The notes beneath the pieces were generated by a model. The model saw only the letters and a program-made list of their open reading frames with translations. It was not told the origin of the DNA and ran no database searches. A stretch of DNA of 47,814 bases from Microthyrium microscopicum. Lineage: Eukaryota. Every line of letters begins with the position of its first letter. Positions within the stretch are counted from its first letter, which is position 1. Below, in pieces: positions 8,401 to 47,814 of this stretch. A program made the translations under genes and the position numbers. The stretch spans positions 2,119,530 to 2,167,343 of the forward strand of contig MU004238.1 in the NCBI GenBank assembly GCA_010405405.1. The letters run 5' to 3'.

Positions 8401-8550
8401 CTGCTCCATCATAAATACCTAGCGTGTCTGCATTTCCCATCAAACTTGTTTAAAGTTTCCATCTTACCTTACTCTCTCCCACTACACATATACCCCACCA
8501 TCCACCGCCAGTTCTTCCAAGAGAGACCAATACCCAATACCACCGCCAAC

Positions 8551-23273: not shown

Positions 23274-24086
23274 ATGGCCTCCACACATCTCACTAGCCCC
23301 GAGCAGCTCCGTCGCTTGCTTTTCAACCGCTACAATCACCAACAAACGTGCATCGGGCACGCACTGTCTCTCAGACGCCGATGTCAGGGCATCATCCCAG
23401 AATATGACCGACGATACTGTAGGAGTTTGTGCAATGACGGAGATATCGATTACGTCCAGGCCATGTTGGACGAACTCTTGGAAGCCGGATTGTGCGCCCG
23501 GCACAAGAAGCAGGCCGCTCGCATTTCGAACATACTGGACACATGTGATGGAGTATACGATGCGGATGCAAAGCCATCGATAGCCGACCGTAGATTCTTT
23601 GAGGAAGAGGAAGTCGGTGAGCGAGACAGTCTCGACTTGTGGGGTTTTCAGGTCAAACAAGAGGCGGACTCGCAATCTTACTATTCCGCAATGTCTTGTC
23701 CTCCAGTTGTCACCGCTGCCATAGATCTCCCCGAGGAGCAAGTCGTACCACTGCCCCATCTCACAATGCAGACCAACAAATCTACCAGTGTGTTACATTC
23801 GAACGATATCCCGTCAGCAGCATCGATGGGTTCAAACGCATGCCTTTCTCCACAACTCCAAGTGTCGTCTAATAACACCGGATCCGCCATTACACCACTG
23901 GCACATTACAGCACTACCGGAGCAGCGGGCCGTCGGCTTGTCCAAGCTGCGGCATCTGCCAGCGGTACACTACCAAGAGACGGAAACAAAGGACGATTAG
24001 ATACGGAGAGATGGACTGGAAGACGAAAGATACTGGGCGTAGTTGGCATCCTCATCTGCGGAGGATTTCTTATTTTGCACTGTTAG
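23274..24086 (+). CDS. Hypothetical protein with N-terminal Cys/His motif and C-terminal hydrophobic anchor
   Basis: 270-aa ATG ORF in a good context. TCIG-x7-RC...LCARH pattern, low-complexity middle, terminal RRKILGVVGILICGGFLILHC. Confidence 0.65.
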   Translation: MASTHLTSPEQLRRLLFNRYNHQQTCIGHALSLRRRCQGIIPEYDRRYCRSLCNDGDIDYVQAMLDELLEAGLCARHKKQAARISNILDTCDGVYDADAKPSIADRRFFEEEEVGERDSLDLWGFQVKQEADSQSYYSAMSCPPVVTAAIDLPEEQVVPLPHLTMQTNKSTSVLHSNDIPSAASMGSNACLSPQLQVSSNNTGSAITPLAHYSTTGAAGRRLVQAAASASGTLPRDGNKGRLDTERWTGRRKILGVVGILICGGFLILHC

Positions 24087-24769
24087 ACGTATCAAGTTCT
24101 GTGAGCCATCGAGTCGCGTGCGTCCCGTGAAGCGAGGTTGGTAATAAAAAATCTCTCGGTCTTTGTCTTCGCATTGAATCTTTTTCTTCTCAATATGGAT
24201 CTTTTCTCAGCTCTTTGATATGATGAAAGCACAAAGCTATTGTGGTAAAAGAAAACGCACTTGTACTTAGGAAATGAACATGCCTCACTGAATGTAGAAT
24301 GATAGAAAGATATATTCGGAGAGCAAATTCTACGGCTCCATACTTTTCATCTTTTCATGCACGTTACAGGCTCTCATCGATCTCATACATTTTTTAGAGA
24401 CTAGACTGTTATAGCAATGGCATTTACAAGATATGAGCTAGATGATGATGCTCGCACGTTCAGCAAATGCGCGAACACCCTACCTGCCTACCATAGCGTG
24501 GAGGGGAGGGTTTTGCAATTCATATTGCCATTATAACGATTCCTAAAATAGTACTTAGTACCTATTTTAGTCTAAGTACCTAGTATAATTATAAGATCTT
24601 AGCTAAGCTTCGCAACACTATTATATAATAAAAGAGATAGTTTAATTAATAATTTTTACTAGGAAAAAATCTTAAGATTCTCTTTTATAAACTATATTTT
24701 TATAGTTAAAATTAAGTAAAAGATAAATATAGTATTACTATATAAAAATAATTTAAGATATATTATTAC

Positions 24770-26610
24770 TAAAGATTAGCTTTATACCTTCTCTATTTAG
24801 TAATAGAATTAGGATCTTAGATATAAAATAATTAGACGTAAATATTATAGAGTATATCTAATTAGAATATAGGTTTATCTAATAATATTATCCTATTACT
24901 ATAATATATTAATTCTATATAAGAAAACTATAGCTAGTAAACCTAAATTACTAGATTAATTATATAAAGAAGTAAATTTACTCCTTTAGAAATAGATTCC
25001 TACTTAAGTTATCTATAGCTTAATATAGGTTAGAGATTATTACCCTATATACTTCCTATAAAACGCGTTCTTAATAACTTACTCTTAATACTAAGAGAAT
25101 TTATTATAAACCTCTTATTAAATAAATAGTATAGTATACTTAAAAATAATATAGCTATAGTAATATTACTATATTATTCTTAAAAGGGCTTAAGAATAAT
25201 ACCTTAATAATATTTATATAAGATAATAGTAACTATATAATATAATTATATTTATATAACTTGCTTTTAGTAGAATCTAAACTTCTAGATAAGGTAGCTA
25301 TAATATTCTATTTTAATCTTATTACTATTATATCTTAGTCCTATTACTATAGCTTTAATATATAATCCTTTATATAAATTAACTTAGCTAGCCTATTAGA
25401 TTTACTAGTTATAGTATATATTACTAATAATTTATAAAGTAAGATTAGTAGTAATTATAATAAAGAAGCCTTTCTAGTAGTTATTAATATTAGCTACGTA
25501 TTTCTTTAGTAAGTTAGGATCTAAAGCTAATTATTTAGACTATCTTTATTACTTTATATACTATTAACTTCTTTTTATATTTAGTAGATAAATAGTATAT
25601 AATACTTTCTATTATTTATTAATAGTAGTCTATTATTTCCTAGTTCTATTTTAATAATCTAAATATTATTCTTATATTATAGTAAGTTAATAAGCCTAGT
25701 ATAGAATTTATTAATTTAGTAATAAATATAATAAAGAAGTATTTTAAAATAGTATAATTTACTTCCTAGATTTACTTTATAGTATTACGCCTAATAGTTC
25801 TTCTTCTTATCTATTAGTAATAGAATCTCTATACCTAATTATTTATTTAATTAGTAGAAGAGGTATAGATAATAATTTCTAGATTAAATATTTTACTATA
25901 GAAAGCTTCTTTATATTATTCTACTAACAAGATATAAATCTTACTACTTAGCTAATAAATTTATTTTACTAGAAATATCCTTATTTAATAGTATAAAGAG
26001 AGTAAATACTTTTAAAACTAGATATTTTATAGTAAGTATATACTCTATATTTTTTTATAAGTAAGATTTAGATCTTATTACTTAACTAGTAAATCTTTAA
26101 GGCTAGATATTTTCCTATTTAGTAGATTAGTAAAAGAAAATATAATATAAAAAATATTACTCTTATATATTATTTACTAAAAACTTTTTTATATTTTAGC
26201 TATATATCTTATATAGTAGAGTATTATTCTAGTTGCCTTAGAAAATATTATTTTAGTAAATTAAGAAAAGTTTATTATATTTTAAGTAGATTACTAAAGA
26301 ACTACGTTTACTATATATTTTTATAATAATAAGGTATTTATTTAGTATTTCTTTTTTATACTTATTATACTTAGAAAAAAAGAATATTAGTAGCTACTAA
26401 CGAGATTTACCTACCTAGCTATATAAGTAAGCAACTATATTTTTTATATTAGGTTTAGCTTTAAAGCTATATAGCTTATTATTATAATAATTACTTACTT
26501 TATTAAAGAAAATTATTATTTAAAAGCGTATAAGAAGGATTCTATTAAGAAATATATCTATTAGAAATATTAATTACTTTTAATACTTTTTATATAAAGG
26601 TAATAGGCTT
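24770..26610 (-). pseudogene. RIPed multi-intron gene C2 of unknown function (limits approximate)
   Basis: Minus-strand intron-like segments GTAGGT...TACTAAT...AG (~26414-26370) and GTAATA...TACTAAT...TAG (~26160-26115), and a further TACTAAT...TAG acceptor at ~25835. Intervening frames read as protein with only TAA/TAG stops. Confidence 0.5.
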
Positions 26611-26689
26611 ATAGCTTTATAGATTAGTTATAATATTAGATTATATTATAAAATAAGAATAAAAAGATATAGTAATAATTATAATTATA

Positions 26690-27489
26690 TTTAGTAAAGA
26701 CTATAAAGTTATATCCTAGTTAAGCTATAATAGCAAAGAATATTTAGAGAAATAAGCTAAAAGATTAGAAAATAAAACAAAATTAATACTATACTTAAGA
26801 TATAAGATATATTTTACTTAGAAGTAAAAACATTTACCTCTACTACCTTTATCTCTTTTACTTTTACCTTTATATTTATAATATATTCTTAGATAGTATT
26901 ACTTATTTTTATATTATTTATAATTACTAGAATTATAAAGAAATAGTTTATATTAATATAATTTTTCTTCTTTAATACTAGCTTCTTATTATCTATCTCT
27001 AGCTATATAATTAATTATTTATTAGTAACTTTTTCTACTTCTAATTCTTTAATCTTTATATTAGTAGTATTAAGTTACTTTTATATCTTTTAAATAAGCT
27101 TATATTAGAAGTTATATTATTCTATTATTAGTAAAGTACTTAGCTATAATAATAAGTAGTTTGCTACCTTTAATTAGGTAGAAAGTAACTATATTTTATT
27201 CTTTAAGTTATTATATATTTTAGAGCCTAAATAAGAAGTTATATTACTAGCTTAAATAGCTTAGGTAGACTCTTATGTAGTTATATTATTAATACTTTTA
27301 ACTTTCTTTTTTACTAGCTTATTATTAGATACTAGGGTAGCTTATTTTAAAAGTATTACTAATAATTTTATATTACTCTTATTCTATATCTCTATATTAC
27401 TATTAATCTTATTTTTTATAGGCTTATCTTTATAAATAGAAGTAGCTAATTTTAGTAGTACTAATAATAACTTTTCTTTAATCTTATCC
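26690..27489 (-). pseudogene. 3' part of RIPed gene C1 (acidic repeat, coiled coil, intron ~26837-26757)
   Basis: The frame from 43854-46143 continues exactly when element B and one TSD are removed. Coiled-coil-like KIKELEVEKV, then a phase-0 GTAAAT...CTAAT...TAG intron. Confidence 0.6.
27385..27489 (-). repeat. 105-bp (35-codon) tandem repeat unit, separated from its siblings at 43859-44130 by element B
   Basis: Same unit as at 43859, 43964 and 44069, and ends exactly at the TSD. Confidence 0.9.
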
Positions 27490-27849
27490 TATTAGAGATT
27501 AGGGTTATAGAGTAGGTAAGAAGGTTATAAAATACTTAATAGATTAAGTATATAGAAATAGGGATAAAAGTAATTGCTAAGGAACTATAAAGGGATTCCT
27601 TAGCCTTTATCTTATTACTTAGGAACCTCTAAGATTCTTCTCTAAGCTAGAGTAGTCTATTTATAAGCTAAAGTACTTTAAAGGTATACTTAGCTACTAA
27701 TTATAATAGTTAGGGACCTATTAGTTCTTTTAACTATAGAATATACTAAAGCTAAAGAAGTAGCTCTACTAGCTTCTAATAGCTATTAAGCTAAGGTACT
27801 TAAGCTATAATACCTATCTTAAAGAGTTCGTTAAGTTTAATTCCTAATA
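27490..27849 (-). repeat. 3' LTR of element B
   Basis: TATTAG...CTAATA (RIPed TG...CA termini), direct repeat of 43494-43853. Confidence 0.95.
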
Positions 27850-29735
27850 TTATCCTCTTAATAAGAACCCTAATGTCTTTATAAGTCTTTAAAAGGTTAA
27901 CTACGTTCTAATAGTACTAATATACTTTAAGATATATTATATTATAATAGTATAAACTACTTAGCTACTATCTAGCTAGCTAAATAATAATTTTAGTAAA
28001 TCTTAGTAAACTTATTATTAATTTTAAACGTTACTTAAAGAGGTACCTCTTAAATAATGATTTATAAAGCTAAACGTTACTATTAGGTACTTGTTTAGAT
28101 TTATCTAGGTTTATTAAAAACTTAGGTATTTTTAAGTTTCCTTAAGCTATTATTTTAAGCCTACCTAATCTATAGGTTATTACCTACTAAGAACGACTTC
28201 CCTCTTTAGAACCTTTACTTATAGTAAGAATTAATATTAAAGCTTTCTTTAATAGAAAGTACTTAATAAAGTAAATATTTACTTTTTACTAATCTAACTA
28301 GGTAGAAGAGTATTAAATAAGGTATATTTAATCTTATAATTATATACTTTTTTTAATTCTTCTTTATTCTATTTTTATAGAATTAAGGTATATACCTAAG
28401 TAAACCCTAGCTAACTAAGTAAAGCTAACCTTTATAAATAGAGCTATAATATAAAAATAAGTCTTAACTAGTAATCTTAACATTTTACTAGTAGCTTCTT
28501 TATAAATCTACTTAGTATACTTTATATCCTTTTATATCTATTCTCTCTAATAGCTACTATAAAGAATAAAGTAGAAACTAATAAGGCTCTAAATAGATCT
28601 AGTTTATCTCTATCTAACGCCTTTAAGGTTTTTAAAGATACTATTAATTTACTAAAGACTCTAATTACTAGCGTTATAAAACTAACTAATTTTACTAATA
28701 CTAATATTACTAAAAAGGTAACTAACTAAGTTAAATTTATTAATAGTACTAAAATTAATACTAATAATAACTATATTAAACTATTAAGTTTAGGCTACTC
28801 TTCTTTAAAGCCTTCTAAATCTAAAGAGATTAAAAAGAATACTACTTAGGTTAAGAAAAAAGAAAAGATTTTTAAGCGTAATTATAGTAATAAGTCTAAA
28901 CCTTCTTAGCTTAATATAAAGTAAATATATATTAATAATATTATATATACTAATAAAGCTTAGACTTAGTTTAAATTATACTAAACTTTTTTTATCTATA
29001 ACGTATTAATTAATTATAGTTAGTTAAGTAGTAAACGTTTTCTATATAACTTTAATAATAATAAAATAAAACTATCTAATATAGATAAGTTTATTCTATA
29101 TAAGAATAAAACTAAATTAATTATTAAATAGTTTCTTTTACTTAATCTATATTAGTAATATACTAAAGTATATACTAAAACTTTCCTATATATTAATCTA
29201 AAGGATTAGTACTATATAGCTTATAAGAACTACGTATTAGCCTTTAAGGTTTAAAATAATTATTACTATATAACCTATAAGACTATAAAGTCTTATTAAT
29301 AGTATTTTAAGGTAAGTTATTTTTAATTAATTTAATTTAAATTTAATTATTACTAATTATTTTCTAGGTTATTTCTTATAAGAAGAGTATTACTAAGAAC
29401 CTTATTATAAAGCGTTATAATATATTAAAAGTCTATATACTTTATTAATAAACTTATAATAACGATCTAAGTAAATATAATATAGATTAGCTTCTTTATA
29501 CTAAAAAAATAGTTTATATTACTAATAAAAACGTTATAAAGGCTATCTAGATATAAGTAAACCTTCTTATTATACTTAGGTTTAAACTAATATAAATAAG
29601 TATATCTATATTAATGCTATAAATAATACCTTCCCTCTATATTCTAGTATTGCTAAGAATAGATATAATAATATCTATATAATGCTAATATATTATAAAA
29701 ATAGTAAGGATATCCTTAAGGCTAAGAAAGCTACC

Positions 29736-29961
29736 TGTAACGAGCTATAGAACTTAAGCAAGTAGATAATTAGATTATATTCTAGAATCTACGAATGGGA
29801 AAGAGAGAGAAGAAGATCTAGAAGAGCTATAGATCTACGAGGGAAGTAAGTCCGCTTAGTAGATCCTTAGGCGCGCTAACCTCCTTAGGTCTAGCGCGTA
29901 ATCTTATAATAAGATCTTTCTTATAATACTACTATGAAGCCTATAAAGAGGAATTATTATA
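29736..29961 (-). repeat. 3' LTR of element A
   Basis: Begins TGTAAC, direct repeat of 37163-37388. Confidence 0.97.
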
Positions 29962-30039
29962 TAACTCTTCTTTTTAGTATAGCTCTCTAGGCTATAGACT
30001 ACTAATTATATCTACTTTCTTAATCTATTTTATTTTAAT

Positions 30040-30082
30040 CTAGTCTAGCCTAGTTTAGTCTAGTTTAGTCTAGTCTAGTCTA
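30040..30082 (+). repeat. (YTAGY)n pentanucleotide array in the 3' UTR of element A
   Basis: ctagtctagcctagtttagtctagtttagtctagtctagtcta. Confidence 0.85.
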
Positions 30083-33000
30083 ATAAACTTTTTAATAATA
30101 AATAATATTTTAATCCTTCTATAGTATAATACTAACCTTACTAGTTATTTAGAGTATCTTAACCTTTAGCCTACTAAGGTAACTATTAAGAAGCATTAAT
30201 AAACTCTAAGATGTCCTTAGAATACTCTAGTTCTTAAGTCCTAGTAGTCTAGTAGTTAGTAGTCTTATTAATATAAAGGAATTAGTAGTATAATTATTTA
30301 CTCTTTCTAATTAGTAGGAACGCTATTAGAGTTATAATTAATACTATTACTAGTAGGCTCTAGTATTAGTAGTATCTAGGTAGAATATAGGCCTAGCTTA
30401 CTAAAGTACTAAGCGTAAAACTTAGTAATAAGCTTTAGTATATTCTTAGTAGCTATCTAATTATACTATTTAGCTTTATTATAATTAGTATACTTAATCT
30501 TATATTATAGCTTCTTATATTAATTAGTAAAGTAGCTATTAATAATAGCGTTAATAGACTATTTATTATTATTTATAGTTTCTTTAATAACTACTAGTAG
30601 TAAATTAGTATACTTAAGTAGCTTAGTATCGTCTATAATATAGTAGAGGACTTAGGCGTAAAAGATATTATATATCTTTATAAAAGAGAAGAGATTAAGT
30701 TTATAGGTAATAGTATTAATCTTCTTAATTATATAAAAGGAACTTATATTCTTATTATCTAGAGTCTTTAAAGGACGTAAAGTAGAGTAGTTCTATGTAT
30801 CTAAGCGAACCTAGTTGCTTAGTAATAGGTCTAGAGCTACGTAGTAATAGCGATTAGTGTATTCTGCTTATTAAGCTTATGCCTAGATTAATTACTCTAT
30901 TAAATAATTATATATCTTAGTACGACCTTTCTATATTATGTCTATATTAATAGCTTCTTTATTAGTAGCTATAGAGGCGTTTATAAGTTTTAGGAAGTAA
31001 TATAAGAACTTAAGGCCTAATTAAGGGTTAAATTTATTTTAAGCTTTAAAGGATATAACTCCTATAGTAGTATTTATAGCAAAATTAACTATAAATTTAG
31101 TAAAGAGTAGAAGAGCTACCTAGTTATCTTAATCTTAATTAATAAACGCGCATAGGAATTACTTAAGTACTATAACTAAGATTTCTATTATGCTATTAGT
31201 CTTAGAGTAGAATGCTATACTAAGATAGAGTATTATGCCTATGTATTTATATAAGTACTTCTAGAATATAGAGGTAAATTAGCTACTATAGTTTAAAAGA
31301 ATTATTAATAGCTAGCTAACAAGTTTCTATATATAGTTAATAAAGGCTAGTACTATTAAGTCTATAAATAAGTCTAGTAGTAAGATAAAACGTTAGGTCT
31401 ATATATAGTAATTAATAACTACTATAATATACTAATAGATTATACCTTAGTATAAATAATAAGGTAATAAAATAGTAAAGTTAATAGAAATATTAGACTA
31501 TATACGCTTAGGAAGAGAAAATTAATATAAGAAGCTTTACTTCTTTTAGTAGATAGGTTTAGTAAATACACATTTATAGCCTTTAATAAAGCTTTTAACG
31601 TTTTATAATATCTTAGGCTACTAGTAATCTTTTTATAGGTAGTAGTAAGTTATTACTACTCTACTATAGCTTATAGCTTTATAGCTATATGCGCTCTATA
31701 TAGCGCAACGCTAAAGCTTATCTTAAGGAATAAAGATCTAGTTATAGTAGAAGATTATCTTATTAGTAGCTACTACGTAGTCTCTAAGCTTAATTTACTC
31801 TTATTTTAAAGTACTAAAGGGTAAGAAGAGCTAGTAATTAGTCTTAACGTAGTAAATAGTAATTATTATTTTATTATGCTTTACTACGTTTATAATATCC
31901 TATAGAAACTAGTTGCTATTAAAATCTAGGAATAGGTTATCTCTTAAGGGATTAAGTAGCTTACCCTTAAGCGTCTTATTATTACTAAGAGACTCTTTTA
32001 TAGAATTAAGTAGCTTACTTATAAGATTAGAAATATCTAACTTATTCTAAACAATAGTAACTAAGTATAGTATTAAGAAATAAGTAGGTTTAATAAGCAA
32101 TATAGCTAACTTTACTATATATTTTATATTAAATTAGTATAGAAATAGTAAAGATTAGACCTATTAAGAGACGTAAAGGTTATTATTACTTTATAAAATA
32201 TCTTATAACTAATAAGTAAGGGTATCTACCTTTCTATTAGCTATACCTAAATAGTACTTTATCTTAAAGTAAAACTAGGAGAGGAACTTAGCCTATCTAG
32301 CTTATTATTAAAAGAGACGTTTTATTATTATAAACGTTTAAAGGTTATAGTAATTAGAGAATACTTAAATAAGGTTAATAAAGCTAAATAGCTCTAGTTC
32401 TTACTCTTTAAATATATAGATAATAGCTAAAAGCTCTTTATTATAAATATTATAATTATATTCTACTAAAGTTATCTTCTTTAAGAGGTACGTAACTAGG
32501 TAAAGCTTCCTATTATTATCTTTTTAAGAAAGAATTATAGTATAAACCTAATCTAAAGTATCTATTTCTAGCTATATTTCTTTTATATAGTTAAAATAAC
32601 GTAATATCTTAATAAACGTAAAGTCTTACTTTAGCTTCTTAAACGTACGTTCCTTTAGTTTATTAAAGTCTTAAGAGAAGATTACTATAGCGTCCTTCTT
32701 TATAAGTACTATTAGTAGTACTATAATTTTTAAATATTTAAGAATAAATTAGTAATAAAAGTTAGTAAAGCTAAGGAAAGCTTAAACGTCTTTTACTAAA
32801 AAGGAATATTACTAGTTAACTATGCTTTAAATCTTTTCTAGGTCTATCTTAATACCTTTAGTAGTAATAATTAGGCTAAGGTATTTAACTTATTAAGTAT
32901 TAAATTTATACTTTTAGATATCTAAGTATAATCCTACTTTACTTATTACTTCTAGGACTAGATAGGTATAGATAGTATAGCTAGCTTTAGTATTACTAAA

Positions 33001-36000
33001 GACTAATAGATTATTTATATAATCTATAATAAAGTCATCTAAATAATTAATTAGGATATAGTTAAGATAAGCTTAGAAAGTCTTTAGGACTTTAGTAAAG
33101 CTAAAAGGCATAACTTTAAATTTATATAACTTATAATAAGTTAGGAATATAGTTTTGTATTTATTACTAGGTTTAATATAGATATATATAAAGGTAGTAA
33201 TAATATTAAATTTAGAGAAATATTTTACGTAATAAATATAGGTAAGTATTTCTAATAGCTATAGAGGAATATTATAATTCTTTTATATAATCTTATTAAG
33301 TTTATAATAATTAATATAAACTTAAATTCTTTTTCTTAGCTTATATATATATAGTATTAGTATAGCGTAATATAACTTACTAGCTTAAACTTAATCTTAA
33401 CTAAGTATTTAATTAACATATTATTTAATAATAAGGAATTCCTAATAACCTAAGCTACTATAGTAGTGTTTAGGAATTATAGCATTAGAGATAATATTAA
33501 TAAAGTAATCTTATTTACTATAGTATAGTATAAGTTTATTGCCTAATTTTAGGTTAAAGACGTCTATATAATAATAATATTTCTTTAGTAAGTATTTAAG
33601 AATCTCTTTTTATAAAAGAGAAGGCTTATTATACTTTTCTTACTACTTTTTAAAATCCTTAGGTAAGATTTTGCCTAAGTTAATAGTAACGTCTTTCTTT
33701 AGTATAGGATTTAGATTTAGAGGTTTCTTTTCCTTTCTATTTTTAAAGTTATTAGGCTAGATTTTGCTAAATTACTAGCCTTATTCTAATAACTTAATAA
33801 AGGTAGTAACGCTAATTATAGTAACGTTTTTAAAGTAAAAGTCTATTAGATTAACTAAGTAGCCTTTATAATCTACTAAGATTAGGTAGCCTACTAATAA
33901 GTAATATATAAGGTAGTAGTCTAAGTTAAAGTAGATTTACTTCTTACTTTCTTTAAAAGTAATCTTATAGAGGTTAATTTAAGGGTTACTAAGGATAAGG
34001 TTATAGCTAGTAACGTTTATAATAAAGTAGTAGATTTATTTAATATACTCTTCTAAATAGACGTTAACTATAGTAACTTTATTAACTTTTATAATAGTTT
34101 TATTATTAGCTAATTATATAATTTAGGGGGTAGAAAGATTAATAGTAGGGATTCTATATTATTTAATAAAGTTAGGGTAAATAATTCCTATTACTTTACT
34201 ACTAGTATCTATAAGAATATTAATTTTTAAGTAGTAGCTTTATCTTAGAGAGAATATAGTACTAGAAGTAGTCTATTAGTTACTTATTATAAATATAGTA
34301 GCTACTTCTTAGAGACGAAAATTATATACTATAGAAGTAAGGGATATCTTAATAATAGCTAGTTTAATATTATTAAATATAATAGGCTCTAAGGATAACG
34401 CTTATTAGAGATTACCTTCTAGGCGTTAGATAGTCTTATTAACCTTATATTAGATTTATTCTTTAAAGAAAACTAGCTTAGGGTTAGGTTCCTCCTTCTT
34501 CTATTACTAATTATATACTTCTTACTTATTTAGCTCCTTTACGCATTTCTATAGAAAAGCTTTTAGTTTTCTATATTATTACTATAATTATACTTATTAT
34601 AATTATCCTCTATAGTTAGGAACTAAGGAGATTAAGTAGTAATTTAATTATAGATAATAGCAAACTCTATAATAATAGTAGCAACCTTTAGTTATATTTT
34701 AGTATCTAAAAGAGCGTCTCTATCTTTATATAGTGCTAAGTTATACTAATAGCTATAACTCTTCTTTTTATACTTTATATAATAGTTATTAGCCTTTAAG
34801 GCGTTATAGATATTTAAAGAGTAGTTAAACTTTAGTTTCTATTTACTACTCTTAGCTACTAAATAATTATTATTATTATAGCTTTGTAGATTAATAAAGG
34901 GGACGTATTTAATATAATAAGCTATAGTATATAAGCTCTTAAGGAAGTCTATAAATGTTTTTAATTCTATAAAGAGCACTCTCTCTATAAACTTTAAAAG
35001 TAGAAGGAGACGCATTTTAATAATCTTATCTTAATTACTAAGCTTAGCTTCTTATAAGTTCTTTAAGAAGTAAGCTAGAAATTATTTAAGCTTCTTAATA
35101 GACTTTATTATAGCTTCTTAACTTTTAAGCTAGGTCTTAGTAGTAATATAGCTATCTTTAATACTATACTTATAATCTAAATTAGACTATATCTCTACTA
35201 TAGATAAATATAAGTTAGTTAACTTATAATTACTCTACTTGTTAATAGTACTAAATGCTTAATCTTTTATTACTCCTTAAATAACTTAGATTTTAGAGGC
35301 TTTTATAAGATAAACTTATATGTTATTATTAAGGTAATCTAATACTTTATCTTTTTAAGCATAGTACTTCTACTTATTCTTTCCTAAAAAGAGTAAAGGC
35401 TTATTATCCTATATCTTAAGGAAAGAGGCGCTACTAATTAAGTTAAGATTAAAAAAGAAAATAGTTTAACGTAAGTCTAGTATTCCTAAAGATATATTTA
35501 AGTTAGGTTAGTCTATATCTTAAGCTAAGGAGATTTAACAAAATAGATTATTATTTACTAACTCATTACAATTAAGATAAAGATTAGTTACCTTAGTAGT
35601 TAAGGGTTTCTTTTAAAGGGCGTTAACCTAAGCTTAAAGAATAGTAGCTTTATTTATCTTTTTTTATAGAGCCTTATAGTATTTACTAATCTTATTAACG
35701 TAAGTAGTAAGTACTTCCTTAAGTAGATTATTATCGTATTATAGTTCCTATACTTTTTAATAAGTAGTTGCTACTTTCTTAAGAGTAATAGCGTTATTTT
35801 AGATTTACGCTTTAAAGTAAGTAATCTACTTTACGCGTTTATTATTAGTTTTAGCTAAGTCCTATATTTCTCCTTAAGCTTCTAGAACTTCTTCTTAAAG
35901 AGTATAGATTAAGTCTATATTATAAGTATTTATATTCTACTTAATTTTAAAGAGATAGGCTATAGTTTAGAAGGCTAATAAAGAAGCGTAAAGCTATATA

Positions 36001-37162
36001 ACTAAGTTGTCTAGTATTAATTCCCCTTTTAATAAATATTCTAAATCTATATCTAATTTAATTAGGTAGTAAGAGTAATAATAGAGATCTAATTACTTTT
36101 CTTTATAATAAAAGTATACTCCTACGTTCTTTAGCTTATCGCCTTCTTTACTAGGCATCTTTTATACTTAAGTAGCTTAGAAGATTAAAGGGTTCTTATT
36201 AATAGTTAAAGTAACTAGTTAATTAAGGTTTACTACTATAAGGTAATAAGATATTAATATAAGTAGTACTCTAGGGCCTTTAGCTTATTAACATAGTTCT
36301 ATTAGCTATTTATATATTTTAAAAGAAAGTCTAGTATTATCGTTAGGTTAAAAAGGAGCTAGTAGTTAGTTATTTCCTATATTTATTTAGTTTAGTAAAG
36401 TTATTTAACTAGTATTTTAAGGAGCATCTTCTAACGCTTTAGTCTCTTTACCTTTATAGCCTCATTCTAATAGATAATTATCTTCTAACTTATCTTTATC
36501 TTCTAATAACGCTTTTAAGTTTAGTTCTAGCGATTTTAATAGTCCTAAGACGTTCTCTACTAAATCTACTACTTTCTAGGTAGTATTTAGTTATATTATA
36601 TTCTAGGTATTAGGTTTACTTTAATACTTAGTATATATAGTAAAAGGGTAACGTAATAGAAATAAGTAACGCAAACGTATAGGAGATAGAGATTAACGCT
36701 AATTATAAGGCTAAGTATAAATAATTAAAGATAGCAAGTAGGCTATATAGCTATTAACTTAGGTCTATTAAGTAGAAGCCTTATTAGCTATAATTATAAA
36801 TAATAAAGAAGAGTACTAGGAGAGAATACTTATTTATTTAACGCGTTTTAATAATAAGTATATTAAGTATAATTATAGATATTTAATAGTAGTATAGAAG
36901 ATAAACTTTAGTATTCTATAGAACTAAGGATAAGGAGCAATTAACGCTTAGACTATTAATAAGTTAAAGAGTATTAAGAAATCCTAACGCTCTAATTAGA
37001 TAGGGGGTTAGCAGAGCTAATAAATTTAGTAAATCTATAAAGAATCTTTAATAGAGTTTAAGACTATATGCATAGAATATTAATCTATATAGGTACTTCT
37101 TTAGAAGTAAATTCTAGGGTATGTAGTATAAGCATATAAATATTTAAATAGTTTATAGATTA

Positions 37163-37388
37163 TATAACGAGCTATAGAACTTAAGTAAGTAGATAATTAG
37201 ATTATATTCTAGAATCTATAAACAAGAAAGAGAGAGAAGAAGATCTAAAAGAGCTATAGATTTACAAGGGAAGTAAGTTTGCTTGGCAGATCCTTAGACA
37301 CGCTAACTCCCTTAGGTTTAGCGCGTAATCTTATAATAAGATCTCTCTTATAACACCGCTATAAAGCCTATAAAGAGGAATTATCATA
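37163..37388 (-). repeat. 5' LTR of element A
   Basis: Same length as the left LTR. About 25 differences by manual count, all transitions, no indels. Confidence 0.97.
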
Positions 37389-40300
37389 CTACCTATTACT
37401 CTAAAGTAGCTTTACTTAAAGCTACTATTAGTACTACTTATATTAAGCGCTATAATAACCTTTATACCTATTATTATAAATTTAAACTACTTATAAATAA
37501 TAACTAAGAAAGTATAAGTACTCTAATTATATTACTTAAATTCTAATTAACTTTATTTTAGGTTATAGATACTTTATTACGTTAAATTAGTAAGCTTACT
37601 AACGTTATAAAGATATTTACTTCTTAGTAGGCTAATAGTACTAAAAAGAAGAAAAAGGCTTTTAATACGAGTTAGTTTATAATTCTCTAAAGCTAGATTA
37701 ATAAGTATAAGCTTAGTTTAAGTAAGCAAATAGTTCTTTGTTGCTATCTAGTTATAATAGGTTAGATTAATTCTAATAATAACGATTTAGAAACTAAAGA
37801 GTCTAAAGAATAGATATAATATCTAGTAAATATATCTAATATTAAGTTAATATATCTAGTATTTAATAGATAAGGTTAATTATATTTTAGGTTTATTATA
37901 AGCTATTTATTAGTACTTAGTAGCTATTAGGTTCTATTTAAACTAATTTATATAAATAGTATAAGATAGTTTCTCTTAATAAAATACTTTCTTAAATTTC
38001 TAAGTCTTCTCTTATAAACCTAGATAGTACTTAGGAGTATATTCTTATAAACTTAGAATTATTATTTTAAGGTATTTAAAGGATACCTTTTTAAGGGTTA
38101 ATAAGTAAAGCTAAAGTAATATTAATAGTTTTAGATTTAGGTTTAAAATTAGTTCTATATCTAGTTTTAAATTTTTTCTAAGTCTTTTCTATTTAGACTA
38201 TATTTATATATATATCTATAGGAACCTATTTATTCTAAAGTATTATAATAATACTATTTAAATACTATTTAGTTTTATTTAAATAAGCTTATCTTAATTA
38301 TAAGTAAAATAAATTATTATTATATATCTATATATACTATAAAGTAACTATGCTTTTATACTTATCCTCTCTATAAAAAGAAGCTCGTTCTAAGTCTTAT
38401 TATAACTATTTTAGTCTACTTAGCCCTTTCTTAGCTAGTATAAGTTTAGTAAATACTAAAAGCTTCTTTAGACGTTTTCTTAGCTTCTTAAGCTCTAAAT
38501 AGGGTTTATCTAAGTTAAGTTATTCTAATTTATATTTAATTACTTCTATTAGAGCTAATTTAGCTAAAAAGATACTCTTTTTCTTTAACTTCTCTTAATA
38601 GCGCTTTAATATAACTAAGAAAAGGTTACTAATAGGTTCTTAGCTTACTTTAAATATAGAATAGTTTTTTTACTTTACTTTATAGTAATAGATACTATCT
38701 TTATTAACCTTATATCTAATTATATCTTTAACTTTATAGTAATTAGTCTCTTTAAAGTCTAAGATTTCCTAAAATAAGATTATTTACTATAAGAAATATA
38801 TATTAAGTATATATTATTATAATAAGGAGATATAAAAGATATTATAAACTAGAGCGCCTTTAAGTAAGTTAATATAGTATATATTATAGTTAATAACCTC
38901 TATTACTTTAAAGAGGCTTATATACTTAATATTTAGTTTCTTTTTAGACTTAGCTATTCTAATATTCTTTATATTAAATAAAACTTAGTTATTTACCTTT
39001 AAAGTAACATCCTTATAGCCTTTATTATAGTATTTAGCTTATAGAGTTTAAACATTTTCTAAATAAGCTTAAAAAGCTCTTTAAAGAGATAGAATATATT
39101 CTACTAGTTCTTTTACGTTAAGAGTAATACTTATTAGGTACTCTTTAAGTACTTCTAGTACGTATAAGTATTTACTTATATATATTATAAATAGAGTAAT
39201 ACTAATTAAGTTATATATACTATTATTATATATAAATTTAGTAAAATTAAGCTTTTTAGCCTAATTATTCTACTCTTAGCTATAATAGATATATAAATAG
39301 TATTTAATCTCTTAGTTTTAATGCTCTATTTACTTATCTATCTAAGGTTAAAACGTAGTAAATAACTTCTATTAGATTCCTAAATAATAGAGGAATATAT
39401 TCTAGAACTTAAAGATAAATATAAAGCCTCTATTAAATATAATTATATTTAATACGCTATAAAGTTATACTACTTTATATAAAAAGAGCTTAGCAAGATT
39501 ATTTACATCTATATCTTTATAATAAAGTATATAATAAGCTATTTTAGTTAGCTTATAGATAACTACTATAATAAAGTTATATAGCTATCCTTAGAAGACG
39601 CTTAAAAATAAGTTAATAATAAAATTAACTATAATATCTTTCTAAAGGGCTATTAGTACTAGTAAAGATAGAAAGAGTCTATTTTAGCCTTATTTAATAG
39701 ACGTATTTTATTTATACTCTAAATAGGCTATATAGTACTCTTAGATATCCTTATTAATATTATCCTAAGTATAATAGCGTTAAATCTTCTCTAATATCTT
39801 ATATTAGCTTCTATAGCCTCTTTCTAAGAGATTATTATAAAAATATTAGAAAACTTAGACTTTACTATTCTTTATAGTAACCTCTATCTATAAATAAGTT
39901 TATTTATTTTCTATTAGCTTAGTAAAAGAGCTATTAAGTACATCTAATATAGTAATAATATCTACTTTTTAAGAATTATTTCTTAGATACTATAATAAGG
40001 TACTAATAGATATAACTAAAGCGTTAATAAACCTAATTAAGTCTTTATTAGACTTAGGCGCCTTAGATAGTTATAATTTATCTTAGATAAGGTTTAATAA
40101 GGTATTTATAGTTCTTTTCTACTTTATATTATCTAAAGAGACATAGTCTAGTCTTTATAAAGGTCTATTTATAAAGTTTATCTTTCTTAAATAATATTTA
40201 ATATTAAACTTAAACTTAGTAAGAAAATCTACTTATCTTATATATATAGTAAAGATATTTTAGGATATATTAAGTAAATAAAGGTTTATATAATCTATTA

Positions 40301-43300
40301 GGATTAAAAACTTTAGAATACTATATAGGTACTTATAAAAAACTCTTATAGAGTTAATAATAGCTAGAAACTTCTACTATAGAGTCCTATAGTAACTCTT
40401 AAGTCTTAATAGCTTTCTTAAGTAAAACGCTATAAGTTACTATTAGTCTTCTTAACCTAGCTTAATTTATTTCTAGCTTAAAATACTATAAATTACTTAT
40501 CTAAAAGCGTCTATTTTTAGATAAGTCTTTAATATAAGATTATAGTAAGTAAAAATTAATACGTATATAAAGGTAGCCTTTAAGTTATTAAAAAATTAAA
40601 TAGCTTTAAGAGAAAGATTAATAGAAACTAATTCCTTATTATATAGCTATTAGCTTTTTAAGGCCTACCCTAAAAGCTTCTTAATTAAAGAGTTTAATAA
40701 AGAAGTAATATAAGAGAAGTTAGTAATAAAATATTAATAATAGTTTATAAAGCTAATAAACTTTCTTACTTAGTATATATTACGTAGTGTTAACTAATCT
40801 ATAACTATTATAATTTATTCTAATTTTATTATAATACTATCTAAAGTTATAATATATTTAAAGTACTTAGTTTAGTCTATATAAAAGCTATACTTTAATA
40901 ACTTAATATATAACTTAAACTTAATAAGTCTTTTAAGTACCTCCTTTATATATTTAATATAATCTTCTTTATTCTTAAAGAAAATAAAAATATTATTAAA
41001 GTAGATAATATAAGTTATATTAATAAGGCTATATAGGGCTTAATTAATATATACTTAAAAAGTAGTAGAAACGTTAGTAAACTTAAAGAGTATTACTTAA
41101 TACTTAAAGGACCTATATTTAGTTTAAAATACTATCTTTTACTCATTACTAATATAAATATAAATATAATAATATATTTTATAAAGATCTAGGCTTATAA
41201 AGAACTTAGCTCTTAATAATTAATTTAATAACTCTTTAATTAGTAATAAAGCATAATAGTCCTTAACTATAATATTATTTAAGCCTTTATAGTCTATATA
41301 TAAATATAAGGTACTATCCTTCTTCTTTATAAAGATAATTAAGGCTCTAATAAAAAACTAAGATTTATAAATAAATCCTCTCTTAAAATCTTTCTTAAAG
41401 TATTTATATAGAATAACTAGTTTTGCTTCTAATAAGTCGTAAATAAGCTAATAAAGTATACTTATACCTAACTTAAGATTAATAACTAAGTCCTATAAAC
41501 TATATTCTACTAAATTCTATACTTTATCCTTACTAAAGGCTTTTATAAGCTTCTTATAGTAATATAGTAAGTCTTATAGACTAACATAGTTTAATAAACT
41601 TACTAAATACTTAAAGAGCTAAGTAGATCTATCTTAACCTAATTAGAGTAACTCTTTTAGGAAGATAAATCTAATCTTATTATAGTAGTTATCCTTTAAA
41701 TAAATAAAGAATAAAGTCTTAGCCTTAAAGTCTAGTAAAAGGTTCTAGTCCTTAAGCTAAGGTATCTTTATAATAATTATATAGTATAATAAATCTATAA
41801 TATAAAATAATACTTCATTAGTCTTTAAGATCCTATTAAAGTTAACTACTATTACTTTAGTAGTTACTATCCTATAAATAGTTATAAGTATATTATTTAG
41901 ATACTTAGTTAACTCCTCTAGAAAATAATATATCTCTAATTAAAGCTTCTTAGCTAAGGCGTAGTCTATAATATTAAAATAGGCTCTACTATTTATTATT
42001 ATACTTTATAGTACATAATCTTAGCCTACTTAATTCTAAGTAGTTCTTTATAAGATAATTTAGCGTAATTTCTTTAATTAGTATACCTTCTTATCTAGAA
42101 TCCTCTTATTCTTTATTACTTCTAAGACTTAAGTAATAACGACTTTATAAAAGTTACTAAGAAAGTTAAAAACTAGATTATTTATAATAAAAACTATAAA
42201 ATCTTAGTTAGCTACCTTATAGCTTAGTCTTTTCTCTTAATTCTCTTTAGCTTTAAGTTAAGGTAATTATAAGCTATATAACCTACTTTACTATAATTCT
42301 AATACTTACTTTTACTAGAGTTACTAAGAAATAGCTATTTAACTCTAGGTATTATATTACTCTTTAGTTTATCTAGCTTTAAAGCCCTATTAGAAGGGCT
42401 TAGTCTAGACTTCTTTAACTTATTCCTTTAAGAACCTTATTAAGTCTTATCCTTTAAATCTATAAATATTAAACGCTATTTAGAGAATTTACTATTCTTA
42501 ATATCTTTTTTAAGAGTAGTTAGTATCTTCTAGTTACTAATAAATCTTAAATACTTTAAAATATATTAAGATAAGGCTTCTTTAGCTATCTTAACTATAT
42601 AGTTTAGGTTAAAGATTATATTATTTCTAAGATAAGTAAATAGTCTATTACTAAAGAATAATAAATAAATTAATACGTTATTAATCTTATACTTATAAAA
42701 GAGAAGTACAAATTTATTAAAGTATTCTTAGAAGGTTTTTTTCTTTATTATAGTAGTTAAGAAGCTCTAAAAGACCTTATAACGCTTCTTAATAGGCAGA
42801 CTAAGAAGTTTAAGAGCCTATTATTCTATAAGGGCCTATATAGGTTCGTATTAGTCTAGTTTAGCTAACTAGATCTAGAAATTAATATAATTATTCTAAA
42901 TAGGTTACATAACCTTCTTATTAAGATAATTATAAGCTTAGAGAACTACTAGATATAAGTCCTCTTTATATTTCTTTATAGTAAGTATATTAGTTATATT
43001 AAAGACCTAATCCTTATACTCTTATAAACTTTTAGCTTTATATATCTATAGTTTATTACTACTATAAGCTAATTTAGAGCTATTATATTTAATATAGGCC
43101 AAAATAGCTAGGCTAGCGTTATATTAACTCTATTTATTAATCTACTTAACTAAATAAAGTTCTCTATATTTATAAGCTACTTTTATTACTTTAAATTATT
43201 TAATTTTAAGTATATTACGTATTTACTATATTTTAGCTTATAGCTATTCTAACGTCTCTTTTATATTTACTACTAGTTCTAAATAAGCTTATTCTATATT

Positions 43301-43493
43301 ATTAGGATTACCTATAGAGCTACTTAGTCTTACTAGAGTTAGTATAACTATATCTAGTATAACTAGATTTAATCTAGCTAGTTTTATTTTAAAAGCCTTA
43401 CCCTTAGGTTTTATTAGTTTATTACTTATAACTAATCGTAGTATTTTAAAGAAAAAGCTTTATAAATACTTTATTAGTAAGAAGTAATTATAA

Positions 43494-43853
43494 TATTAGA
43501 GATTAGGATTATAAAGTAGATAAGAAGGTTATAAAATACTTAATAGATTAAATATATAGAAATAGAAATAAGAGTAATTACTAAGGAACTATAAAGAGAT
43601 TCCTTAGCCTCTATCTTATTACCTAAAAACCTCTAAGGTTCCTCTCTAAGCTAAAGTAGTTTATCTATAAGCTAAGGTACCTTAAAAGTACGCTTAGCTA
43701 CTAATTATAATAGTTAAGGACCTATTAATTCTCTTAACTATAGAATATACTAAAGCTAAAGAAGCAGCTCTACTAACTTCTAATAGCTATTAGGCTAAAG
43801 CACTTAGGCTACAATGCCTATCTTAGAGAGTCCGTTAGGTTTACTATCTAATA
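43494..43853 (-). repeat. 5' LTR of element B
   Basis: 360-bp direct repeat of 27490-27849, followed by TSD TATCC. Confidence 0.95.
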
Positions 43854-43858
43854 TATCC

Positions 43859-44130
43859 TATATCTTTATATTACTATTAATCTTATTTTCTATAGGCTTA
43901 TCTTTATAGATAGAAGTAGTTAGTTTTAGTAGTACTACTAGTAACTTTTCTTTAATCTTATTTTATATCTTTATATTACTATTAATCTTATTTTTTATAG
44001 ACTTATCTTTATAGATAGAAGTAGCTAATTTTAGTAGTACTACTAGTAATTTTTCTTTAATTTTATTCTATATCTTTATATTACTCTTAACCTTCTTTTT
44101 TTAAGGCTTATCTTTATAGATAGGAGTAGC
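43859..44130 (-). repeat. 105-bp coding tandem repeat, ~2.6 copies (plus one at 27385-27489)
   Basis: Unit starts TATATCT at 43859, 43964 and 44069. Confidence 0.92.
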
Positions 44131-45759
44131 TTATTTCGCTAACTTTTATAAAGATTTTATAATAGCTTTAATAGATATATTAAAGATACTATTATTTAGA
44201 TTCTTTATTATAATAACTTTAGAGCTTTAGCTAGTAGTTTTTTTAGTAACTTTAATATTTTTAGTCTTAGCCTTAATAGCTATATCTTCTTTAATTATAT
44301 CTTTAATTATAAAGAGAATATATACTATAATTATTTTAGTATCTTATCTCTTAAAGTATTTAAAGCAGCCTTTAGATAAATTAGCTACTAAGTTAGTTAA
44401 TTCTTTAGAATTAATTTATATACGTAGTCTTAGCTTTATTAGGCTAAATTAATATTTACTTATAGCTATATTTACTTTACCTTTCTTAGGCTTCTTTTTT
44501 ATTTTTATATTAAGAAGAAACTTTTAAGAGAGTTTAGATTAAATTTCTTTATATAAGTAATCTATAGTATTCTCTACTATACTAGTATTGTTAATAATTT
44601 ATTAAAGTTTAGTTTAATCTAAATCTTTAATTTATAAAATAGACTTAAAAGTTATAAAGACTTTATATTTATATATAATATCTAAGCTTTTATTAAAGTT
44701 ATAAAGTTCTTCTTTATTTTTAAGATCTTATTACTTAGTCTTAGTAATAATAACCTAAAGCTTCTTTATTAAGATCTTTTTCTATTTAGTAGTAGACTTT
44801 TTATTATACTTTTATTATATATAAAACTTACTAGTAATATCTAAAAATACTACTAGCTTAATAGCTATAAATATAGAAGGGACTTAAATATATAGGTCTT
44901 TTTTATCTAGTTTATTATAAAAAAATACTAATATATTTATATAACGTTAAGAATAAATAAGATTACGTAGCTTTAATAGTTTATTTTAAGCTATAGTAAT
45001 ATATTATTCTCTAATATATACTTACTCTTTATATATATATATATCTTCTACTAAATAAAGTTATTATTTAATATTAAAAAAAGCGTAATTAATTTTAAAG
45101 ACTTAGCTACCTTCTCTATCTTTAAGTACTATTATAATAAGAGCAACTTAAGTATATATCTTATTAAAGTATATATTTAGTAATAACGTTACTAATTCTA
45201 TATCTTAAGCCTATATAAAGATTTTCTAGCCTAGGGCGTTATATACTTTTACTAACTCTTTATTTTCTTATAGTAGTAAAGTACTATCTAGAGTATATAA
45301 TTATAAAAAGAAGAGATAATATAATATATCTTTATAGCCTTTACGCTTAAATATATATTATAATTATAGGATTATAAAGTACTTATTTATAATCTTAAAA
45401 CTAGCTTTATAGTGAAACTAAGAGTTATTTCTTAAGAAGCTATACTTAATAAAATCTAGGTTTATAATTTATTATATCTAATATAGACTTATAGATTTAC
45501 TATTTACTAGGTAAATTTTAAGATATTTCTTAATATAGTTAATATACTATAAATAATTAACCTAATTAAATTTTAGTAGCTAAATTAATAAAAGATTTTT
45601 CTTATTATTAAATTACTTAAAGGTCTTTTTTTTAGTCTTATTTTATAGCTATTTAAGACGCTTATTATTCTTAGTTATAGTTTACTTAATATATTTTTAG
45701 AGATTTTAGTTTGCTTTAACTCCTTCTTTCTATATAACTTATTTTTTCTTTATAGCTAG

Positions 45760-45828
45760 CTTTTTAGGTTTAGACTTAAGCTTTTTAGGTTTAGACTTAG
45801 ACTTTTTAGGTTTAGACTTTAGCTTTTT
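45760..45828 (-). repeat. 21-bp coding tandem repeat x3 (xKSKPKK as read)
   Basis: CTTTTTAGGTTTAGACTT at 45760, 45781 and 45802. Confidence 0.9.
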
Positions 45829-46732
45829 ATTACTTCTAGCTATCTTGTTATTAATTATAATATTAGAAAACGTATTCTTATCTTTATTTATTATAAGCTC
45901 TTTAATAATATAACTAGACTTATAAGGTTTAAATTTCTTAGCTTATACTAATATAGGTTTATTTTTCTTAGCTTTTTTATTATTCTCCTTATTTTACTTA
46001 AATTCTAATATTTCTTAAAGAGTTTCTCTTATATTAGGATTATTTTTAAGTTACTATTACTACTTTTTAGTAAAGAGTTTTTATATTAGCTTTAGATTCT
46101 TAGGAAGGGCTAGTTTATTTTTAGCGTTTTTAGTTCTTACTATAGTAAGAATAGGAAGTCTATTAAAGTTAGCCTTTTAGCTCTAATAAATATAAAAAAA
46201 TAAGGCTTTAAAACTTATATATTAGGTAGAGAAATAGGTTAATAAGAAATAGATTATAATAGTAATATAGAGTTATATAAATTAAGTATAATTAGTAGTT
46301 TTAGCTATCTTTATAGTTATTCTTAAAGACTTCTAATAATTATATAGAGATAGTTAAAAAGAAATAATAGTATAGGTCTAAAAAGCTTTATACTATATAG
46401 CTAGCTAACTTTACTTATTTAATAATTATAATCTAAGCTTACTTAACTAAAGTAATACTTTAAGCTAAGTAAGTAACTAGTATAAAAGAGTATAATAAGA
46501 TTAAGTAAGCTTATAAATAATAACCTACTATATTAGGAAATTAGCTCCTATCTACTTTTAACTCCTAAAATAGTAGTAAGTACCTATATAGATTATATTA
46601 CGTTATTATAGCTAATAATAAAATTAAGTTATTAAATTTATATAGTAAAAGAGTTTAGTATAAAGAATAGATAGTACTATAAGTTTAATAGGATTATTTT
46701 TAGTTTCTATAATTATAAGCTTATAGATAGTA

Positions 46733-46762
46733 NNNNNNNNNNNNNNNNNNNNNNNNNNNNNN
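46733..46762. other. Assembly gap (30 N)
   Basis: Run of N. Confidence 1.
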
Positions 46763-46763
46763 A

Positions 46764-47814
46764 ACGTAAAATAATTAAATTAAGTAGACTTATAGCTAAC
46801 GTTAAGTTTTAAAATAAGAAGAAGTTAAGAGTATTAATATATTATAGTATTAACTAAAGTTTATAGAGTATAGCTATAACGTAGTTTTATTAAATATATT
46901 AATATTAAGGCTAATAAAGAAGCTTAGTATTAAAGTAATATAAGGTATATATATATTATAATATTAATTTCTTAGTTTTAATCGTAAGAGTACTATAATA
47001 TAACTAGACGTAAAGTATATATAACTAATAACTTACTCTATAAGATATATAGTATTAACTATATCTAAATCTTAAAGTTAATTATTACTAAGTATTATAA
47101 TAGTATAATATATTAGCGTACGTTTTAATTTAGCTAAGTTATTTTTAATATTATTAAAATAATAATATAAAGAGACATTAAGATTAATATAGAGATTTCG
47201 TCTAAAGAGAGACTTAAGCTTTTATTTTTTTTATTTAATAAATTTTACTAATAACTAAATAAGTAGCTAGATAATATATTTATTAATATAGACTATTAAG
47301 GAGTTACTAAGTTTTAAGACTTACCTATTTAGTATCCTATATTTCTAGGAAATTCTTTACTACTTAGGTCTAGCATTATATAAAGTCTTAGTATTAATAT
47401 TATAAAGACTATATAAAGATTTATAGTATTAAATTAAGAGCTTAATAATCTCTTTTAGTACCTATTATAGCTTCCTTAATTTTGCCTTATAATATTTATT
47501 AAAAAAACTCTAAGTCTATAAATAAAGCATCCTTAATAACTATAAATTTATAAGTATAGGCTATAATATAGTAGTTACTAAAGAAGGAATTTAGTATATA
47601 CTTAAAGTATATACTATACTATATAACTTATTTTATAATTTTAAATAATAGCTTTTATTATAGAAGTTATAAGTAACTATACCTAAGAGCTATACTTAAC
47701 GAAATACTATATAAGTAACGAAGTAAGATCTTCTATTATAGAAATAAGTTTATACTACTAGGTTTAGTAATTAAGACAAGATAGACTTTCTTATAATTTA
47801 TCTATATAGTAAGT
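46764..47814 (+). pseudogene. RIPed coding relic C3, unidentified, open at both ends
   Basis: One plus frame reads protein-like for ~350 codons with TAA/TAG stops only (e.g. RDIKINIEISSKERLKLL, IGYNIVVTKEGI). No motif recognised. Confidence 0.4.

Follow-up and report, generated by a model that had tools for sequence, protein, structure and literature searches.

The stretch of DNA analysed here, referred to as the window, comprises 47,814 bp of contig MU004238.1 from the fungus Microthyrium microscopicum (assembly GCA_010405405.1, positions 2,119,530 to 2,167,343), the right half of which has been saturated by repeat-induced point mutation (RIP). Within this AT-rich block lies an outer unit, C, that is split by a Ty3/Gypsy long terminal repeat (LTR) retrotransposon, B, which is in turn split by a second such element, A. 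An earlier description made from the letters without database searches (the sequence-only reading) had taken C for a multi-gene, multi-intron element of unclassified type. We found in it the ghost of a single reading frame, C1, and a tandem array that is best explained as non-coding, and so that description is not supported. On balance, we consider it probable that C is an ancient and now lone RIP relic that was once present in at least two copies and whose class can no longer be determined.

RIP profile and anatomy of the outer unit

Since RIP makes only transitions, recoding DNA into purines and pyrimidines (R/Y) gives an alphabet that RIP leaves unaffected, and this recoding was used alongside comparisons in bases. 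From ~24.53 kb to 47814, GC content was 0.17-0.25, TpA/ApT was 1.5-1.9, and the composite index (CpA+TpG)/(ApC+GpT) was 0.00-0.19, compared to flank values of 0.43-0.97 and 1.1-1.7 for the two ratios. Numeric thresholds are in common use for RIP indices; here, it is the comparison of dinucleotide ratios with those of the flank that marks the whole stretch from ~24.53 kb to the end of the window as RIP-affected. RIP was uniform and extreme by all three measures, as had been claimed. In keeping with the specificity of RIP, duplicated parts of the block differed almost wholly by transitions when bases were compared with R/Y: the LTRs of B were 88.6% identical in bases and 99.4% in R/Y (361 positions), those of A were 89.3% and 98.4% identical, respectively, and two 105-bp units of a tandem repeat lying on either side of B (27380-27492 and 43854-43966) were 91% and 99.1% identical.

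Excision of B together with one copy of its target-site duplication (TSD), TATCC, removed 16369 bp, joined position 27489 to 43859, and left 2958 + 2874 = 5832 bp as the left and right arms of C (Table 1). The LTR pairs, the TSD and this join confirmed the nesting of A in B in C and the coordinates proposed for it. The 105-bp units kept their register across the join, and since the array straddles B in phase, B must have inserted inside a repeat array of 35 codons per unit. In a Pfam scan of translations of A and B in which X stood for stops, the minus strand of A matched RT_RNaseH_2 (1.7e-12), RT_RNaseH and SH3_Tf2-1, and that of B matched SH3_Tf2-1, RVT_1, RT_RNaseH and RT_RNaseH_2. These surviving matches identify both as Ty3/Gypsy elements, and they serve as a positive control, showing that enzyme domains are visible to Pfam despite RIP of this severity.

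The left edge of the RIPed block (24500-24700) proved to be a step less than 200 bp wide. Across 24400-24799, CpA+TpG ran 16, 5, 2 and 0 per 100 bp and TpA rose from 9 to 25, and the flank at 24087-24530 still held 137 CpA per kb. No fall of RIP density with distance from B was seen in either arm of C; moving away from B, residual CpA was 6.4, 3.0 and 1.0 per kb in the left arm (1.0 at 24700-25700) and 2.1, 3.0 and 1.1 per kb in the right. The three layers were decayed in the order C > B > A, which matches the order of nesting: GC was 0.18-0.19 in C, 0.214 in B and 0.246 in A; CpG was 5.7-8.4, 11.5-12.5 and 22.7 per kb; and CpC was 16-18, 24-32 and 31 per kb, respectively. Leakage of RIP from a repeat is described, in passages of two papers (PMC2973834; PMC4943192), as a gradient that scales with proximity of the repeat and was seen at least 930 bp out in Neurospora. 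Because C has a step-like edge and no gradient, and is more depleted than both B and A, direct RIP, and hence former duplication of C, is a better fit than leakage. These results therefore support the claim that RIP this uniform points to DNA that was once repeated.

Table 1. Features of the window (positions count from its first letter; C-left and C-right are the two arms of C)
Feature	Position	Strand	Remarks
C-left arm	24532-27489		RIP-saturated, low-copy, between unique flank and B; GC 0.18; CpA 3.2 per kb vs 147 in flank
C-right arm	43859-46732		RIP-saturated, low-copy; GC 0.193; CpA 2.1 per kb
C1, main body	43859-46408	minus (plausible)	~850 codons
C1, 3' part	26700-27489	minus (plausible)	holds 2 units of the 35-codon repeat
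105-bp units left of B	27276-27489	minus (plausible)	Tandem Repeats Finder (TRF) 27293-27492, period 105, 1.9 copies
105-bp (35-codon) units right of B	43859-44285	minus (plausible)	TRF 43854-44136, 2.7 copies, 90%; BLASTn carries array to 44285
21-bp repeat, in frame	45758-45829	minus (plausible)	3.4 copies; TRF 90% matches; now reads KSKPKKL
Degenerate tandem array, period ~134 bp	25400-26700		R/Y autocorrelation
"C3"	46763-47814		RIPed DNA past gap; GC 0.189
Element B	27490-43853	minus	Ty3/Gypsy LTR retrotransposon, 8.7 kb without A; sits in C1 repeat array
B LTRs	27490-27850 and 43494-43853/43854		self-comparison
B TSD (TATCC, 5 bp)	27485-27489 (left copy) and 43854-43858 (right copy)		junction sequences
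Element A	29736-37413	minus	Ty3/Gypsy, nested within B
A LTRs	~29736-29986 and ~37163-37413		self-comparison
Host part of window	1-24.5 kb		GC 0.41-0.53; normal dinucleotide ratios
Open reading frame with methyltransferase domain	16406-18016		host part
Leucine-rich repeat (LRR) + Exo_endo_phos pair	19795-22049		host part; CCR4-like in appearance
Open frame, 323 codons	23115-24086	plus	no Pfam family; C-terminus hydrophobic
Assembly gap, 30 N	46733-46762

A former reading frame, its repeats and the searches for homologues

No open frame of C is intact; all have been destroyed. The R/Y alphabet recovered a periodicity of three in the right arm outside the 105-bp array (44286-46200; p = 2.6e-4) and in the left arm at 26700-27292 (p = 0.005), and the two frames were continuous once B was removed. 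In both, purine content was ordered R1>R2>R3, as it is in the pol regions of A and B, where it drops from codon position 1 to 3 (p = 1.6e-12 and p = 2e-8, respectively). In sliding windows, the log-likelihood of the frame was positive at 43859-44908 and 45659-46408, while 300-bp windows over 26700-27489 gave a weak signal. Judged by this periodicity, the two arms hold the ghost of one long former reading frame, C1, of ~1000 codons over about 46400-43859 plus 27489-~26700. A coding origin fits the 105-bp and 21-bp repeats, both of which are in frame, and the coding repeats that had been described for C1 were indeed found, the 105-bp array being in phase on both sides of B.

The strand of C1 is less firmly placed than its length. 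Over 800 codons of the right arm, the C1 frame contained 64 stops, compared to 158 and 92 in the other two minus-strand frames; on the plus strand, the in-register antisense frame contained 66 and another frame contained 47, the latter because the pyrimidine-rich phase coincides with its second codon position. Since antisense frames are equally poor in stops, stop counts alone cannot fix the strand, and the one argument for the minus strand is that it is purine-rich (0.556), which makes that orientation plausible. Thus, the long frame of the minus-strand gene that had been proposed stands, while its strand is no firmer than this. The coiled coil that had also been described for C1 is not supported, since RIP has altered the residues that the frame now encodes.

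A second gene, C2, with at least three introns, had been proposed in tandem with C1, and it could not be confirmed. At 24532-26699 there was no periodicity (p 0.86-0.91) and no stop-poor frame, and the highest window log-likelihood was 1.6 nats. The site at 25400-26700 turned out to be a degenerate tandem array: R/Y autocorrelation had a peak at a lag of 134 (0.61, z 5.8) and further, harmonic peaks at 268 and 403, BLASTn matched 25666-26523 with 25801-26656 (E 4e-38), and R/Y BLAST matched 25871-26009 with 26005-26143 at a score of 59, compared to a null maximum of 38. The period is not a multiple of 3, and a non-coding array is the best explanation. C3, the RIPed DNA past the assembly gap, had likewise been read as a divergent relic of C. 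It showed no R/Y 3-periodicity (p = 0.59), and its resemblance to C stayed at the level of the null in both tblastn (best 32.3 bits, null 26.6-37.4) and R/Y BLAST, so that this claim, too, is not supported.

Pfam returned 0 families at E<=1 in 12/12 frames of both arms of C and, likewise, in all six frames of C3, in agreement with the claim that C carries no recognisable mobility enzyme. Accordingly, C contained no reverse transcriptase (RT), RNase H, integrase (IN), DDE transposase, RepHel, tyrosine recombinase (YR), DUF3435 captain or viral domain that Pfam could detect at the lowered sensitivity that RIP imposes. When the product of the C1 right arm (782 residues, stops read as X) was compared by phmmer with 1.84 billion representative proteins, there were 0 matches at E<=1e-3. 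As a control, the gag region of B, for which relatives certainly exist, was also read with X at stops and put through a protein homology search, where it matched 0/1993 candidates at E<=1e-3 (proteins of 220-700 residues only). Since the RIPed gag control also matched nothing, negative protein searches carry little weight for non-enzymatic proteins, and the absence of a homologue for C1 is no evidence of novelty. Comparison of C with A and B by tblastn gave composition-driven noise only, and there was no likeness in R/Y DNA. We also considered C1 as a gag with a CCHC zinc knuckle and rejected it, considering that no RIP-tolerant CCHC pattern keeping Cys or His occurred in the 18 frames of C-left, C-right and C3 and that there was no Retrotrans_gag match. 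R/Y self-BLAST of 24401-47814 recovered the LTR pairs of A and B, whereas no match involving the ends of C exceeded the null; the right end of C may lie beyond the window. The left end (~24532), the only one within the window, had no inverted match in the same comparison.

Copy number and origin of C

To estimate copy number, Logan contigs from the source sample (three runs) and from a relative (one run, X5) were matched to 26733-46732 at >=80% likeness; contig depth gives a poor count of copies, and copies less than 80% alike would be missed. In one run of the source sample (X1), summed depth was 126-148 in the bins of C-right and 51 in that of C-left, compared to 3000-4100 in B and 7000-12000 in A. 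A contig of 7240 bp, found in two runs and with a depth of 109 in X1, covered 43965-46732 with 0 differences and ran 4472 bases beyond 46732. On the other side, a 3642-bp contig of a second run (X3), also with 0 differences, entered from beyond the left limit of the compared stretch, would start near 23878 if colinear with the window, and ended at 27519, 30 bases into the LTR of B. The A and B contigs among the longest listed were only 0.4-1.2 kb. Thus, C is present today in about one copy, whereas B and A reach copy-equivalents from the tens to above 100, and given the 30- to 100-fold contrast in depth and the unbroken contigs, C is no present-day repeat family. By its own account, the sequence-only reading would fall if the DNA were single-copy with intact, syntenic orthologues in relatives (RIP leakage); the contigs gave the first half of this, about one copy of C at >=80% likeness. 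Taking the gap as ~30 bases, the low-copy RIPed block probably reaches ~3.4 kb past the end of the window. No contig joined 27489 to 43859 across B among the 15 joint rows listed (of 58).

The gap at 46733-46762 could be closed with the 7240-bp contig. In the relative, X5, depth was flat (6-35) over A, B and C alike, and 58% of placed contigs continued as unlike sequence; considering this flat background, with peaks only at RT regions, the matches were not read as copies of C. The peaks themselves, contigs >=80% alike at the RT regions 32069-33402 (depths 182-411) and 40740-41406 (depth 125), indicate that related Gypsy families exist in the relative.

According to the explanation that we favour, C would have been present in at least two copies, and RIP would have hit it directly to saturation. 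It would have carried one repeat-rich open reading frame (ORF), C1, of ~1000 codons with repeats of 35 and 7 codons, followed by the non-coding array of ~134 bp. B would then have landed in the 35-codon array of an already AT-rich C, making the TSD TATCC, and A would have landed in B afterwards. Each later sexual cycle would have added RIP to all three layers, yielding the decay C > B > A, and the sister copies of C would since have been deleted or lost, leaving it near single-copy today. An old transposable element (TE) would be the likeliest source, and a one-off segmental duplication a less likely one. Several points weigh against this history. No second copy of C at >=80% likeness was seen in the four contig sets, and since partners saturated by RIP should stay more than 80% alike (the LTR pairs are 88-89% alike), a surviving partner should have shown up; with no second copy seen, it is the RIP pattern that speaks for former multiplicity. 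The contigs of C-left and C-right differed 2.5-fold in depth in X3, while in X1 the difference ran the other way, and the copy status of 24532-26732 depends on colinearity of the 3642-bp contig with the window. Within the window, C displayed no TE hallmark such as a terminal repeat or a TSD. Furthermore, the lower GC of C could partly be its original composition, and selection on the 3' end of the neighbouring gene could sharpen the left edge.

A possible, if unlikely, alternative is that C was always single-copy host DNA, i.e., a dispensable repeat-rich gene and a minisatellite, which came to lie within a nest of transposons and into which RIP spread from the neighbouring repeats via the heterochromatin-related DIM-5/DIM-2 pathway until the front halted where the 3' end of the neighbouring gene is under selection. 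C is about single-copy now and lies within long unique contigs, it has no TE hallmark or enzyme domain, and the RIP edge lies ~445 bp beyond the stop of the ORF at 23115-24086. Leakage into single-copy genes is also on record in passages of the literature (PMC2973834; PMC4943192), and part of a study of Neurospora describes DIM-2-mediated RIP that mutates adjoining non-repetitive DNA at levels comparable to repeats (bioRxiv 10.1101/115501). As in these accounts of the AvrLm6 region of Leptosphaeria maculans (PMC2973834) and of DIM-5/DIM-2 in Neurospora (bioRxiv 10.1101/115501), RIPed single-copy DNA here adjoins high-copy RIPed repeats. However, the falling gradient reported there is not what we observed: both arms of C are saturated across 2.9 kb and the edge is a step, depletion is strongest at the end most distant from B, and the mutation load of C exceeds that of the repeats from which RIP would have spread. 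The unique flank 100-400 bp from the edge is almost intact, and so spreading would be short-ranged here unless selection hides it. Moreover, DIM-2 RIP is described in the same text as even more CpA-specific (bioRxiv 10.1101/115501), yet in C the depletion of CpG and CpC is no weaker than in A and B.

That C is a fragment of a described family, for instance a piece from the gag side or an untranslated region of an LTR or long interspersed nuclear element (LINE), or a non-autonomous derivative, blurred by RIP and truncation, is in our view unlikely. RIP this strong wipes out non-enzymatic homology, as the 0/1993 outcome for the gag region of B illustrates, and the layout of C, a long ORF with a tandem array behind it, is reminiscent of an ORF with a repetitive untranslated region. 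C also shares with A and B, both Tf2-like Ty3/Gypsy elements, the same RIP history and AT-rich block, and its C1 may lie on the same strand. Unlike them, it lacks an LTR pair within the window as well as any RT, RNase H, IN or SH3 signal, and it resembles neither of them in protein or R/Y DNA; the C1 frame retains no trace of a CCHC knuckle, and no RT, RNase H or IN occurs in C-left, where pol should come after gag. We regard it as quite unlikely that C is cargo or another non-enzymatic part of a large low-copy mobile element (Starship-like, Crypton, Helitron-like, an endogenous viral element or a new class) with its mobility gene beyond the right end. Starships, the giant cargo transposons of Pezizomycotina, have low copy numbers, and their cargo genes without mobility domains could resemble C, in which a direct-RIP signature is combined with low copy number and the ghost of a long ORF without a known domain. 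Low-copy RIPed DNA also continues 4472 bases past 46732 in one contig, so that the block is at least ~10 kb. Unlike a Starship, C has no DUF3435 captain, terminal repeats or evidence of an insertion site within the window, no YR, RepHel, DDE or viral domain was found by Pfam in any of 12 frames, and, as the empty gag control makes the homology searches powerless, "no known domain" is not evidence of novelty. Mobility has no positive support, and neither a giant transposon nor a viral element nor a new TE class is positively indicated. The stronger form of this proposal, in which C and at least 4.5 kb of low-copy RIPed DNA past the gap would be the dead remnant of a large mobile or viral element of low copy number and undescribed kind, which underwent at least one duplication before RIP killed it, with a repeat-rich protein of ~1000 residues as its main product and no known mobility enzyme, we consider very improbable.

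Neighbouring features and wider meaning

Within B, the gag region (42100-43300) and pol (38650-42250) lie in different frames by R/Y periodicity (first codon base mod 3 = 1 and 2, respectively), which fits a gag-pol frameshift. Between the integrase SH3 domain of B and its 3' LTR there are ~3.3 kb (27851-29735 and 37414-38800), of which 28300-29199 showed coding-like R/Y periodicity (p ~1e-3 and 3e-3). Since the summed depth of this ~3.3-kb stretch in X1 (3100-3800) equals that of the rest of B, it is part of the B family, and it may represent an additional ORF of the 8.7-kb Gypsy element. A contig of X3 linked 29733 to 37394 with 2 letters between, which represents a copy of B without A. Since such copies exist, A entered this copy of B after the spread of B.

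The normal part of the window bears ordinary host genes (Table 1). The nearest intact neighbour of the AT-rich block is the ORF at 23115-24086, whose stop lies ~445 bp short of the RIP edge. Scans for tRNA and Rfam families across the window gave 0 matches. With regard to dinucleotides, the loss of CpG at 24700-47814 (from 105 to 0-23 per kb) nearly equalled that of CpA (from 147 to 1-10 per kb), and CpC was thinned while CpT was spared (125 per kb in the flank, 145-182 per kb in the block). Since RIP here removes CpG nearly as fully as CpA and also thins CpC, GC is brought down to 17-25%.

The genome of L. maculans reportedly contains AT-rich isochores. Like such isochores and the RIP relics of other Pezizomycotina, the block described here has a RIP dinucleotide signature, an abrupt border between GC- and AT-rich DNA, nested LTR retrotransposons, lost open frames, and a position at a contig end or gap. 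It differs from them in that its outermost layer, C, is about single-copy and has no recognisable TE protein, and in that CpG was removed as thoroughly as CpA, at a GC of 17-25%. RIP relics in Pezizomycotina are described in part of one paper as mosaics of RIP-degraded nested transposons (PMC4943192), and the AT-rich regions of such fungi are known to contain RIP relics that defy classification.

C can be seen as a calibration case, in which a RIP-saturated block mimics an exotic, enzyme-less element once its homology has been erased and its sister copies are gone. Intact relatives of C1 elsewhere, if they exist, could reopen the case. At the same time, R/Y periodicity and R/Y alignment recovered reading frames, LTR pairs and insertion sites from DNA of 18% GC, and the ordered decay C > B > A provides a relative clock for nested insertions. 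Lastly, the fact that RIP stops in a step while the flank next to it is untouched suggests that RIP spreads over a very short range in this fungus, which bears on the threat that RIP poses to genes adjacent to repeats.

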